DNA of 64,000 bases from Callorhinchus milii (taxonomy: Eukaryota): the NCBI RefSeq assembly GCF_018977255.1, contig NW_024704742.1, positions 76,014,001-76,078,000 on the forward strand, given 5' to 3'. The notes under the pieces were generated by a model, which ran no database searches, had not been told where the DNA came from, and worked only from the letters and a program-made list of their open reading frames with translations. Shown piece by piece: positions 4,641 through 46,295 of the stretch (the stretch's first letter is position 1; each line of letters starts with the position of its first letter). Position numbers and translations under genes: made by a program.

Positions 4641-4717
4641 CTGGTCCTTTTCTGGCTTGTCCGAGATGTCATTCATGCTTCCAGTAGCCATGCTGCGATG
4701 GGAAGAGCCAGGGCTGC
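4641..4717 (-). CDS. SLC4A4: SLC4A4-type coding exon, 77 nt: (G)SPGSSHRSMATGSMNDISDKPEKDQ
   Basis: Acceptor ccttacccccaccctcgcag|GC AGC, donor CAG|gtgagg. NDISDKPEKDQ is identical to NBCe1. Confidence 0.96.
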
Positions 4718-6080: not shown

Positions 6081-6821
6081 CGACACGGTAATTCACAGTA
6101 ATTCCTGTGATGCATTCTGAGACGTTCTTCTGATGTTGTAAGGCCCTTTACCAAATAAAACGATAATTATGATTATTATTATTTAACCCAAGTATCTAAT
6201 CCTCCTCTGTGTGAGATGAGAGCACGCAGTCTATCATAAAAATTGGCAACTCTGCATTATGGATTGGTAATGGGATTTTTACGGATTACTGCTTGATGTG
6301 TCCCAGTGGGCGTCAGTTAGTTATTAAACTGTGGGGACATCACAGGTGAGGCTGGTTCTGGGTTCACACATTTCAAGTGGGGAGGGGAGCAATCACTCGT
6401 TTGTGACTCTGATGACTCAGAAGTTTTTTTAAAAATGTTTGCCATGGTAGGAATTGTGTGTGCAATACAACCACGCAATGTATGTCCGATGCAACTGTAC
6501 TGCGTGTGGATAAGTATGCTGCTCGTGTGATGCAACAATGCTGTGTGTGTATATATACAGTAGAACTGTACGACTTGTGCATGATGGCGCCAAACTGTGC
6601 TCTCTGACTTGAAAGTGATAGAGTTTTGGAGCAAACTCTTCCTGTCTGTTCCAAGGACTGATGGTCCCCCCAAAAATGTAACCGGACCACCTTATAGTTA
6701 CAACCGGGTGTAAATTAATCCAATTGGCACTTGTCTGGTAAGACTTCTTATAACAACTATTACCTAATATTCTACCCACACCACCACCGTTGTATATTAT
6801 TATTGGCATATGTGGACTTAC

Positions 6822-6917
6822 TGAGCCATCCCATGCTTGGGCTCGGCTGGACTCGGAGTTCCTCATCTGAGCTGCGAAATGTTAGGCAAGGCACAGAGTT
6901 CTCAAGTGGACTGCAAG
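6822..6917 (-). CDS. SLC4A4: Putative 96-nt in-frame cassette exon: (A)CSPLENSVPCLTFRSSDEELRVQPSPSMGWL(S)
   Basis: Donor CTC A|gtaagt has a full intronic consensus. The acceptor aaag|CT is the first AG after a ~70-nt AG-free, pyrimidine-rich tract. Phase 1-1 fits between the 11795 and 4717 exons, with no stop codon. Confidence 0.65.
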
Positions 6918-7287
6918 CTTTTTGGAGGCCGTCAAAGCAAAGTGGAGTGTGATACAGCGGCAAGGCGAGGTGAAAGAGAAAGAAAAATCTAGCAATAGCA
7001 GGTGCATCAATTTAGAGCAAAAGGGACAGTGCTTGCAACTCAAAGATAAAAGAGAAATCAATAAGTGCAGTAGCTTGATCACTGGACTCTGTCATTAGAT
7101 TCACAGATATATGAAGTAGCCCATAAATTACCCTTCACCTCTGATCACAACGCTTATGACATTTTATCAACCAAGACCTTACACAAGTTGCGAGTCAAAT
7201 CTTTGCTTTCAGATACGAAAGCAAGCATGTATATGTATAAACTATAGGTAATTCCAAATGGCTTCAAAATATTTTAGTCATGATATG

Positions 7288-9990: not shown

Positions 9991-11794
9991 ATCAACCATT
10001 ATAATTATACAAGGGAGATTGATTTGTACTTGGAATTTAAGGCTACTAAAGAATTTTGGAAAAGATAGGAAGTTTGGATTAGAAAGGATAAAGAGGTGGA
10101 GCAGGCTCAATGCTTATTTCCTGTTCCTATGAAGGTTCCGATATTGTCCCCTGATCTGTGCTCAGTTAACTCACTTCAGCCATAATGATTGTGAGGTGCC
10201 AATATCTCCGTGTTAGGAAGTCCCTGGGGGAGAAACGGGGTAAAGCAAAGTTTACCGTCCAGGCTCACACATTAATTAAAATGAAACTTCGAATGTGTAC
10301 ATTTTTCTCATAATTTTAAACTTTCTATTCTATCCAATTCAGAGCCTCTTCGCTAAGTACATTCCTAGTTTAACATCAAAATCACACACTGAGGATCAGC
10401 CAGTCAATCACCCTTCAGTTTTAGAATTCAGAAATATAGTGACATGAGCTCTGAGAGAGTGATCCCCATGTCTTGGGTAATTTTAAAGCGCTTTGATAGT
10501 GTGCATTTAGAATGGAAAACCCATTAACTATAGGCAGCATAAACTACTGTGCATGCAAGCAGCCTTACTCTCGAACTTCAGAATAATGGGATGTCCCTTC
10601 CAGAGTGAAATTACTGAAGTCAATTATTAGTCAGTGAAGGGTGGAAGAGGGGCAAAGATTTATACTGTACAATTGTCCTGGAGCAACAGTGGTGAGGTAT
10701 TGGTTCAAAGGGTGCAGCACAGGAGTCTGACTAACAAAGCAGGGCAATGGGAATAATTGCAAGTCATGCTGTTTTAAGTTCACAGACGTATAACTTTTTG
10801 CTTTGCCTGCCATGAATTATTAACTCAAAGTAATAACCAATCTTCTTAAATTCTCCAGCGTCTATCTACTGAGGAGTGGCTTCAAATGACAGATATTTTT
10901 CATTTCAAAGCCATTTTACCATTTCAATTTTGACAGCAGCATTGTAATACACAATAGCCACCGATTAATTTCTGCTTATTGCTCTTCATGCTGATATTTT
11001 AGAAATAGGAGAACAGGATTAAAGCGCTCAATAAACTATTGACTCTCAGAGTGAAGACAGTGTATGACAAAGGCCATACAACTGAAGGGTGTTATCATAC
11101 AATGCACACTGGAGGTCAACTACAACCAATCTCTCTATAATAACTACAGACTATCAGTCTGTGCTTCTATTAACTGGAATAAATGTATGTAGACATCTTG
11201 CTGCAACATATGATCCACAAGTGGCATTTGTCGAGAATTTCTCATGTCAAAAGATCGCTTTTGCCCTGCCTATTTATTATGCTCAACATTAACGCTTATT
11301 CTCCTATCAGTATTTCCATTTCTTTTTTCTTCTCTTCCCCTTTTATGTTTCTCCAGGACCACGGACCGTTGCTGTCCCTAAGTATCTAGTTTACACCCCA
11401 TGGAATACAATGAACAATATAGGTCTCAGTTAAACAAAGTTTAACTTGAGGGACACAAACAAGTCGTGGTAACTCTTAATACTGGATTTTTGTCCTGTCT
11501 TCTCCCACTATCCATTCTCTCTAAATACTATTTCTGGCAATGTTGTGGGGATGGCGGTGAATGGTTAAGTGACTGAGCAATATGTAAACACTTAGACTGG
11601 AACCTGCAGGGAGATAATTTGTTAATCTAACACTTGTGCTGTTAAGTATTAGACTGAAGTTTTGACAGTAGAAGATTTCATCCCATGGTAGGAGATCATA
11701 CATGGAGTTAATGAGAGGACATTAGTAATGTGATGTGCCAAGATGTAGATGGGAGGAGAAAGAGGTGACTGCAGCAAATTGGCACCTGCATTAC

Positions 11795-11821
11795 CATTAT
11801 CTGAGGTGGAAAACAGCCTAC
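11795..11821 (-). other. SLC4A4: 27-nt (9-codon) alternatively spliced segment equivalent to NBCe1 cassette I, defined by an internal 5' splice site
   Basis: Internal donor GCA A|gtaggc with GT at 11821-11820, exactly 27 nt upstream of the main donor and in the same phase (1). Confidence 0.65.
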
Positions 11822-11974
11822 TTGCACTGGATACCGTCTTTCCGATCTCAGCCAGTGACCGTAGGTTAGATTTCTTAGTCTGGTGCCGATGCCTTCGTAA
11901 GAGAGTATACATCACTTTCTCCTTTAGGTCTGGTTTCAGAAGACCACTTTTAATCTGACTCTCAATGATCATCT
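11795..11974 (-). CDS. SLC4A4: SLC4A4-type coding exon, 180 nt: (E)[59 protein letters not shown](G)
   Basis: Acceptor tttgtttgtgttaacag|AG ATG, donor AAT G|gtaatg. [24 protein letters not shown] is diagnostic of NBCe1. Confidence 0.97.
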
Positions 11975-21124: not shown

Positions 21125-22550
21125 AGTCTCAAACGACATTCTCTCTATCTGTGACCAGAGCTCCCTCTGCCTCCTTGTTCTCCTGGACCTCTCCGCCGCT
21201 TTCAAATTGTCGATCACGCCATCCTCTTCCACCGCCTTTCCTCTGTCATCCACCTCAGTGGGACAACACTCGCCTGGTTCGAGTCGTACCTCACAAACCG
21301 CCAGCAGTACATCTGCACAAACGGCTTTTCCTCTCGCTCTCACCCGGTCACCTGTGGAGTACCCCAAGGATCCATCCTTGTCCCCCTCCTCTTTCTAATC
21401 TACATGCTACCTCTTGGGGATGTCATCTGCAGACGTGGGGTACACTTCCACATGTATGCGGATGACACCCAACTCCATTTTTCCACCTCACTTTGCAACC
21501 CCTAGTCCCCTGATGTTCTGTCAGCCTGCCTGTCAGACACCAGGAGCTGGATGAGTGCGAATTTCCTTCAGCTAAATGTTGACAAGACAGAAGCCATACT
21601 CTTTGGCTCTCATTAACATATTAAATCGCATGGTTCTCACCTGCTCCACCTACCCAACCTCCCCCTAAAACTCTCCAAACCCGTACTCAAACTAGGTGTC
21701 AGGTTCAACTCCCGAACTATCCTTCCTCCCCCACATCCGGTCCCTCACCAGCACCGCTTTCTTCTTCCACCTCCGACACATCGCCCATTCCCGCCAATAC
21801 CTCTCCCAAACAGCTGCTAAAACCCTGGTCCATGCCTTTGTCACCTCTCGGCTGGACTATTCAAATGGCCTCCTCTCCGGTCTTCCCTCCACTACCATCC
21901 ATAAAATCCAGGTCATTCAAAACTCTGCCGTCCACATTCTCACCCGCACCAAACTCCGCTTCCCGATTACCCCAGTACTTGCCAGACTGGCAAAGAGAAG
22001 AGAAGACAGTCTTTACCGGTGTCCTGACCAACACTCCTCCAGATTAAATTGGGCATTCACACCATGGCTGTTTGTGGGACATTGCTGCCCCGCACCAAAC
22101 TCCGCTCCCCGATCACCCCAGTCCTTGCCAGACTGCACTGGCTGCCTATCCCAGAGAGGATCAACTTCAAGATCCTCACCCTTGTCTTCAAATTCCTCCA
22201 CTCCTCTGCACCCCCCTACCTCTCTGACTTCCTCTCTCCTCACAATAGTGCCTGTTGCCTTTGCTCCACCGGGTCTGGCCTCCTCCTTGTCCCCCAAGTC
22301 CTCCGCTCCACCATCAGCGGCCGTGCCCTCAGCCATTATGCCCCGAGTCTCTGGAACTCCCTTCCTCACTCCCTTCACCTCGCCCCCTCTTTTCCTATTT
22401 TCAGGTCTTGGCTGAAGACCTTTCTTTTTGACCGCACCTTTGGTCATCTTCCTCCCCCTCTCCCTGGTTCGGCCCTGGAATCCATTACTGTGAAGCTCTC
22501 TGAGACGCCGTCCGGCGTGGAGAACGCTATATAAATCCAAGTTGTTGTTG
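21125..22550 (+). mobile_element. L2 LINE fragment (RT domain to 3' tail), frameshifted, with an internal duplication and insertion
   Basis: Contains LVLLDLSAAF, GVPQG, FHMYADDTQL, SRLDYSN and LHWLPIPERINFKI motifs. Ends ctatataaatccaag(ttg)n. Confidence 0.92.
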
Positions 22551-32339: not shown

Positions 32340-33075
32340 TACAACCACAACTAAATTACATTGGTATAGCGACTTTCACGTCGGGAGGACGTCCCAAGGC
32401 GCTGGACAGACAGAGTTTTGGACCCGAGCTGGGGGTCGGGTTGGGTGAGGGCACGGGGGGGAAGTAGGGAGATCGAAAGCACAGTTGAAGAGGAGAGTCT
32501 TGAGGTGGGTCTTGAGGGTGGCAAGGAAGGGGGCGAGATGGAGGGACTGCGGGATGGAGTTCCAGAGGACGAGGGCAGAGTGGCAGAAGGCCCACCCACC
32601 AATAGTAGGACGAGCGAGGTGGGGGACGTGAAGCAAACCGGAGCCTGCTGAGCAGAGGGAGCGAACAGGGTGGTAGGGGGTTAGGAGGTTGCAGAGGTAG
32701 GTGGGAGCAAGACCATGGAGAGCTTTGATGGTGAGGACCAGGATCTTGAGCTGTATCCTCTGTGTGATGGGAAGCCAGTGGAGTCGGGTGAGGATGGAGG
32801 TGATAGGGTCGCGGAGCCGAGGGCGGGAGAGGATGCGTACTTCAGAGTTCTGGATGAACTACAGCCTATGAAGGGAGGAGTTGGGGAGCCTGACAAGCAA
32901 TGAGTTTACATTGTCAAGCCTCGATTTAAAGAAAGCATGTATGAGGGTTTCGGCGGACTGCGGTGTGAGACAGTGGCGGAGCCAGGCGACGTTGTGGAGC
33001 GGGGGGAAGGCAAAAGAGGTCAAGATGCAGAAAGGATAGCTGAGGATCAAACAAGACACTAAGGTTCTCAACTGG
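32340..33075 (-). mobile_element. L2 LINE 3' fragment
   Basis: Translates to AETLIHAFFKSRLDN and TIGGWAFCHSALVLWNSIP..LKTHLKTLLF; L2 tail near 32340-32405. Confidence 0.9.
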
Positions 33076-45351: not shown

Positions 45352-46295
45352 ACAATACAAAATTACATTTGTAATGCGCCTTTCATTTTAGGTGGATGTC
45401 TCAAGATGCTGAACAGTCAGGAATTAGGACCCGAGCGGGGGTGGGGAGTTGGGATCAGGGAGGGTGGAGGGCAGAGAGTGTAGGAGGGGGGGGCCGAAGG
45501 CACGTTTGAAGTGGAGGATCTTGAGGTGTGCCTTGAAGGAGGCAAGGAAGGGAATCAGGTGAAGGGAATGTGGGATGGAGTTCCAGAGGGTGGGGGCAGA
45601 GAAGCTGAAGGACTGACCGCCGATGGTGGGGTGGGCCGAGCGGGGGACATGGAGCAGGCCGGAGCCTGTAATAAGGGACAAGTTGATAAGAGATTAGCAG
45701 GTCGGAGAGGTAGGAGGGGTCAAGGCCATTGAGGGCCTTGAAGGTGAGGACAAGAATTTTGAACTTGATCATCTGAGGGATGGGGAGCCAGTGGAGCCAG
45801 GCAAGGGTAGGTGTGATGGGGTCACGGAGCCCAGTGCGGGAGAGGACATAGGCTGCAGAGTTCTGGATGATCTGCAGCTTGTGGAGAGAAGAGTTGGGAA
45901 GGCCGACAAGCAAGGTGTTGGCACTGTCGAGCCTGGTGTAATGAAAGCATGTATGAGAGTTTCAGCGGCTTGAGGGGTGAGGCAGTGGCGGAGTCGGGTA
46001 ATGTTGCGGGGTGGGGGAAGGCAAAGTAGGTCATGCACAGGTGGCACAGGAGGGGGAGACAGGTTTGAAGGTGTGGAGGGAGGGATGGGTAGAGGGCTGG
46101 AGTGTGAGGGAGAGATAGGGAAGGAGTGGCGGTTGGGAGGGTGGAAGCAGCTGAACGGATCCCCTTGAGTTTGGTCTCAAGGAAATCCATCACCTCCTCA
46201 CAGTTGGAGTTGGAAGAGAGGATGGGCGAGGCTTGAGAGGGTGGACGGAGGAGCCGGTTGGTAGTGGAGAAAAGAAGCCTGGGGTTGTCGTTGGC
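45352..46295 (-). mobile_element. L2 LINE fragment with a large internal deletion (upstream ORF2 segment joined to the 3' end)
   Basis: NPRLLFSTTNRLL...EEVMDFLETKL joins directly to RNITRLRHCLTPQAAETLIHAF and LQIIQNSAA..LHWLPI..KFKILVLTFKALNG. Confidence 0.9.

Follow-up and report, generated by a model that had tools for sequence, protein, structure and literature searches.

The question raised by this locus is whether the slc4a4 gene of Callorhinchus milii contains an optional coding exon in addition to the two cassettes, giving five variants, that have been described for SLC4A4 (2015 review, PMC4664831; 2013 paper, PMC3567025). In reviews and recent functional papers, a single N-terminal cassette accompanies these five variants. 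The main text of a 2025 paper on the phosphorylation loop (P-loop) of this transporter names cassette I alone, and the word "exon" does not occur in it (PMC12394656), while a 2026 paper lists three SLC4A4 isoforms (PMC13394549). The window analysed here is a stretch of 64,000 nucleotides from an assembly of 991.5 Mb in 1762 contigs, and positions given below are those of the window unless another contig is named. A first-pass annotation of the window had proposed a hidden 96-nt cassette exon in the region encoding the N-terminal domain, resembling a segment of the paralogue SLC4A5. Our analysis indicates that this element is almost certainly a real optional coding exon of SLC4A4/NBCe1.

In tblastn comparisons, summed over the exons compared, the window gene shares 80% identity with three SLC4A4 proteins of sharks, 77-78% with three of ray-finned fish and 74-76% with four of tetrapods, as against 68-69% with three SLC4A5 proteins. 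By these comparisons the gene is assigned to slc4a4 (NBCe1), an SLC4 Na+/HCO3- transporter gene. Its upstream exon at 11795..11974 on the minus strand is equivalent to mammalian exon 6 and carries cassette I at its end (11821-11795, minus strand), independently of the 96-nt exon. The upstream exon offers three phase-1 donors on that strand, namely 11822|11821, which skips cassette I, 11795|11794, the main donor, and 11786|11785, which adds 9 nt, and orthologue isoforms of all three types were found in predicted records. The downstream exon at 4641..4717 (minus strand) has a phase-1 acceptor and encodes the C-terminal half of the P-loop. The splice partners foreseen by the first-pass annotation, donors 11822|11821 and 11795|11794 upstream and acceptor 4718|4717 downstream, were all found. 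The third in-frame donor, which lies 9 nt beyond the main one (11794-11786, minus strand), is an observation in its own right: predicted isoforms with three extra residues occur in basking shark, sterlet, reedfish, bichir, zebrafish and tambaqui, and by this range the tandem donor at 11786|11785 is judged to be old as well. The introns also contain decayed LINE-like fragments with related reading frames at 293-613, 21155-22534, 32376-32858 and 45455-45961.

Re-reading the sequence bore out the proposed exon in all its structural details. It occupies 6822..6917 on the minus strand and has 96 nt, 32 codons and phase 1-1, as indicated by the sequence, the orthologues and the SLC4A5 match described below. 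An AAG acceptor (6918..6920, minus strand) lies directly 5' of it and a GTAAGT donor (6816..6821, minus strand) follows at the boundary 6822|6821, giving A|GTAAGT. The exon reads ACSPLENSVPCLTFRSSDEELRVQPSPSMGWL in the genomic frame 6918-6823 of the minus strand. It is in frame, symmetric in phase and bounded by GT-AG sites, as are the optional cassettes of the SLC4 N-terminal loop. Seven nucleotides into the exon there is a CAG (6913-6911, minus strand), which could compete as an acceptor and would then produce an 89-nt frameshifting exon.

Other features first brought forward for the exon turned out to be less distinctive. The AG-free tract 5' of the acceptor does exist (6920..6988, minus strand; 69 nt, 72% pyrimidine) but is statistically ordinary, since 9 of 408 AG-to-AG gaps in the same intron, and 60 of 4335 on the minus strand of the window, are as long or longer. 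The CpG-rich island is likewise present, with an observed/expected ratio of 0.48 against 0.35 for the window, but it is weak and falls outside the top 12 of 91 bins. In a limited comparison with ~0.25 Mb of sequence, 6184-7287 came out free of repeats, but so did most of the intron. The intron contains 149 open phase-1 AG..GT candidates 60-150 nt long, and for the best donor match the cassette exon is tied with five other candidates. The tract, the CpG island and the repeat-free island thus carry little weight as evidence for an exon. Counts of splicing-factor motifs near the exon gave nothing convincing; 300-600 nt 3' of it (6521-6222, minus strand) there is a weak excess, one ACTAAC and 10 YCAY with 5.2 expected, presumably QKI/NOVA motifs.

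What raises the exon above chance is homology, as the sequence features alone do not single it out. Among 6 candidates returned for a 41-residue query, one protein, catshark XP_072351358.1, is identical at 25 of 34 residues in the expected place, and no predicted insert-bearing SLC4A4 isoform from Callorhinchus milii itself was found among the 6 candidates of this weak search. XP_072351358.1 belongs to a 20-member cluster; of the 15 members listed, 6 contain the insert, 8 are without it and the remaining one is a fragment. For 71 further SLC4A4 cluster members the corresponding numbers are 19, 49 and 3, with one of the 19, missed by the pattern, counted by eye. Searching with the loop region yielded 2391 matches, and the insert is present in all 120 of the best 120, always with a length of 32 residues; the ranking favours insert-bearing proteins, so this figure describes range and not frequency. 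Among the matches listed, the range takes in sharks, sturgeon, paddlefish, reedfish, teleosts, frog, caecilian, lizards, turtles, birds and mammals. Predicted isoforms with the insert include human A0A8V8TNB1 (UniProt), mouse XP_006535199.1 and chicken XP_420603.3. These records rule out a fish-specific exon, and the exon can no longer be called hidden, as had been supposed, because they already contain it. Predicted records with and without the insert occur inside one species in at least eight cases, namely two catsharks, bamboo shark, sterlet, reedfish, chicken, caecilian and girdled lizard. All four combinations of cassette I and the 32-residue insert are found among predicted isoforms, with the insert following either upstream donor. 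This isoform support consists of predicted RefSeq/UniProt records, and homology can propagate such annotation from one species to another; the conservation of the cassette sequence, on the other hand, is independent of annotation transfer.

Compared with the window, the 32-mer is identical at 25 residues in catshark and reedfish, 24 in frog, 21 in zebrafish and chicken, 20 in mouse and 19 in human. Between window and human, the cassette (19/32, 59%) is nearly as well conserved as the constitutive downstream exon (16/25, 64%), the upstream exon standing at 45/59. A set of 45 distinct cassettes shows no variation at Cys11 and a conservation of 96-98% at Leu5, Val9, Leu12, Arg15 and Ser28 (98% for Leu12 and Ser28). 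All 45 keep a single frame and a single length, and their substitutions are mostly conservative. An R/K-x-x-S motif at Ser28 is found in 31 of the 45 and is missing from the window species and the sharks sampled. As judged by these protein comparisons, the exon is kept in every jawed-vertebrate class sampled, a conservation that spans more than 400 million years.

With phmmer, 13 matches were obtained in the 50% library. The top one, a repeat-rich unrelated protein, was dropped, and the other 12 are unspliced open reading frames from other genomes that extend across the exon, with cassettes resembling those of birds, reptiles and mammals. All 12 read through into Leu-Ser-Lys 3' of the cassette and 11 have Lys/Gln-Ala 5' of it, and the window reads alike. 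Such read-through residues would be expected if the AAG acceptor and the A|GTAAG donor were conserved. The agreement is read at the level of the protein, not of the DNA. The bird/reptile-type frames (P0353-P0359) also have a conserved stretch 5' of the exon in common, a hint that the intronic sequence around the pyrimidine tract is conserved.

A counterpart of the exon is present in SLC4A5. In the assembly of Callorhinchus milii we found no N-terminal half of SLC4A5. This gene looks incomplete or rearranged on contig C28:2398043-2420332, where the 58 kb upstream contain no N-terminal exons, one exon matched twice and one exon is also present inverted, and the 33-residue frame of the cassette matched only itself in its own genome. 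SLC4A5 proteins were fetched with the C-terminal exon from other species, and the cassette comparison covers fish SLC4A5. A segment occupies the same slot in rays, horn shark, eels and tarpon, and in rays, horn shark and eels it has 32 residues, the same phase pattern and, in an ungapped alignment, 9-11 of 32 residues in agreement with the window. From the ray, horn shark, eel and tarpon groups, eight SLC4A5 32-mers were compared ungapped with a profile of the SLC4A4 cassettes, and all eight reached z 5.2-6.2 (p <= 4e-5, 50,000 shuffles). When three SLC4A5 proteins were scanned end to end, the segment came first among 952-1114 windows in each, well ahead of the rest. With a local HMM built from the cassette, SLC4A5 scored only ~5.0 bits, compared with 4.1 for a reversed decoy, which would be insufficient alone for homology. 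The SLC4A5 copy keeps the ends of the cassette and the Ser-x-Glu-x-Leu core, not Val-Pro-Cys-Leu.

The segment appears to be optional in SLC4A5 as well. RefSeq isoform X3 of devil ray and isoform X5 of American eel lack it, and their junction residue changes as phase 1-1 requires. With and without the segment the loop spans 73 and 41 residues in devil ray and 71 and 39 in eel, a difference of exactly 32. All three sawfish SLC4A5 models are without it. Of 146 SLC4A5 records, 77 have the segment, 32 (many of them rough teleost models) do not and 37 are unreadable, so that it is present in 77 of the 109 with a readable loop; its length varies in many teleosts. Because slot, length, phase and sequence are common to both genes, the exon is probably older than the SLC4A4/SLC4A5 duplication. 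The ungapped SLC4A5 match and the with/without isoform pairs in both genes support the proposal that an ancestral SLC4A4/5 exon was retained as an optional cassette. The two genes differ in that the loop exon of SLC4A5/NBCe2, while sharing slot, phase and 32 residues with the NBCe1 cassette, is present in most readable records, whereas the studied NBCe1 forms are without it. The available text of the 2015 review does not list an optional loop element for NBCe2 (PMC4664831).

Two known cassettes of the family invite comparison. Cassette I of NBCe1 has 9 residues and arises from an alternative donor inside exon 6 (PMC4664831), and it lowers activity by 20-30% (PMC7898672). Also called cassette alpha and absent from NBCe1-D/E, it is optional and in frame like the new exon and lies in the same N-terminal loop, directly adjacent to it; the new element differs in being a separate 96-nt exon, 4.9 kb downstream, and not an alternative donor. 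Cassette II of NBCn1 (cassette beta, exon 7) is, like the NBCe1 cassette, a whole optional exon in a Ser-rich loop at the same slot, but it has 123-124 residues in mammals against 32. In the present genome, the cassette II exon of SLC4A7 (NBCn1) starts within the corresponding phase-1 intron, the one that follows the cassette-I exon. The SLC4A7-like gene, on contig C2 at ~45.615 Mb, keeps this exon with a length of ~340 nt, and a GC donor may be in use at the 3' end of the exon. No tblastn match was obtained between the 32-mer and the SLC4A7 cassette II stretch. The two cassettes have the slot alone in common, and no common descent is claimed. A third paralogue on contig C13:6290000-6319999, 59-64% identical to SLC4A4 and 57% to SLC4A5, is probably SLC4A9; in its equivalent intron no 96-nt exon was seen between the flanking exons by tblastn and reading by eye.

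The position of the exon in the protein bears on its possible function. In the solved human NBCe1-A (6CAA) the insert is absent and Gly200 runs into Ser201; its absence from the standard variants NBCe1-A to -E, stated in the first-pass annotation, also agrees with the review literature in its available text. In the B-type proteins of mouse, human and chicken the insert begins at residue 244, where it replaces Gly244 (NBCe1-B numbering), and it falls inside the P-loop at 230-262, between both phosphosite clusters. Residues 230-262 are described as a disordered, inhibitory loop with two Ser/Thr clusters (PMC12394656), and phospho-mimics of both clusters bring activity down by 70-80% (Wu et al. 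2025, PMC12394656). Between the clusters lie 18 residues, and a deletion of 236-253 lowers the inhibition from 84% to 50%; linker length therefore affects inhibition, shortening alone having been tried (PMC12394656). Removing the whole P-loop raises activity modestly, and the structural model of the loop was judged speculative by a reviewer (PMC12394656). An AlphaFold model of the full catshark protein has a pLDDT of ~22 over the loop and is poor as a whole (mean 40.7), which lends weak support to a disordered cassette site.

Inclusion of the exon would lengthen the linker between the P-loop clusters from 18 to 50 residues and would add 5-8 Ser/Thr and a conserved hydrophobic motif (Val-Pro-Cys-Leu ... 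Ser-x-Gly-Trp-Leu). Splicing of the exon could then set the strength of kinase-driven down-regulation of the transporter, under tissue- or state-specific control and with the ions carried unchanged. We regard it as reasonably probable, from the location of the exon in a loop whose length affects inhibition, that it is a regulatory cassette retuning P-loop phospho-inhibition via splicing. As to direction, we would guess, with only a slight leaning, that inhibition is greater when the exon is included. Phospho-mimics in the middle of the loop alone have no effect on NBCe1-A (PMC12394656), and extra middle phosphosites may therefore do little. Also against such retuning are the missing R-x-x-S in the window species and sharks, the testing of the linker by shortening alone and the internal CAG, which may compete.

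The strict conservation within the cassette could reflect another role, in which the exon serves mainly as a docking module, bearing either a short linear motif to which a phosphatase, a kinase, a scaffold or a trafficking partner would bind or a Cys modification site, and linker length is secondary. The fixed length and the near-invariant hydrophobic residues Leu5, Val9, Cys11, Leu12 and Trp31 are more in keeping with a motif than with a passive spacer, and NBCn1 cassette II, at the same slot, binds calcineurin (PMC4664831; PMC4115197). The partner would be putative only, however, and both the SLC4A5 copy, which is without Val-Pro-Cys-Leu, and the failure of the insert to match the SLC4A7 stretch by tblastn speak against such a module, which we consider rather unlikely as the main function. 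The exon may alternatively be real but minor, included at a low level or in few cells, under weak selection and of little physiological weight. The named variants without it, the non-YAG acceptor AAG, the modest gain of activity after deletion of the whole P-loop and the lack of any mention in the available text of a rat-brain phosphosite survey (PMC12394656) would all fit a minor exon. Its identity over more than 400 million years nevertheless equals that of the constitutive neighbour, and its 32 codons are fixed throughout the best 120 of the 2391 loop matches, and we regard this possibility as improbable.

It is very improbable indeed that the segment is untranslated, either as a conserved intronic element or as a frameshifting (poison) exon that gene predictors have rendered in frame. 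The 89-nt out-of-frame exon that the internal CAG would yield and the 149 look-alike candidates of the intron are compatible with this explanation, but the 45 distinct cassettes, which share a single frame and length and differ mostly by conservative substitutions, argue for translation, as do the same length and frame in the SLC4A5 paralogue and the predicted isoforms that join the exon to both upstream donors. A regulatory cassette acting on P-loop phospho-inhibition is the reading that we prefer.

No published description of the exon was found in the literature searched, from which most papers behind subscription, the principal review of 2013 among them, are absent, and the names NBCe1-F and NBCe1-G do not occur in it; splicing atlases or RNA-seq supplements may list the exon. 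The predicted RefSeq/UniProt isoforms XP_072351358.1, XP_006535199.1, XP_420603.3 and A0A8V8TNB1 represent the orthologous exon itself. The exon is thus already in automatic annotation, without a variant name or functional data, and is apparently unstudied. An alternative exon is an ordinary kind of thing, and databases already hold this one. We tentatively propose, with slightly less than even confidence in the proposal as a whole, that NBCe1 has a third, unnamed cassette that is older than the NBCe1/NBCe2 split, intact in humans and tissue- or cell-type-specific, and that switches P-loop phospho-inhibition. If this is true, the catalogue of five variants (A-E) is incomplete, and functional work and variant calling on standard transcripts have missed a conserved regulatory exon in a gene that lies behind proximal renal tubular acidosis and, according to a report from 2026, brain oedema as well (PMC13394549). 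An exon kept from shark to human inside the P-loop would make the control of inhibition by loop length and isoform directly testable, a point left by the 2025 paper. Since NBCe2 mostly includes the segment whereas the studied forms of NBCe1 are without it, our comparison suggests that the regulation of the two transporters may differ partly by one shared exon.
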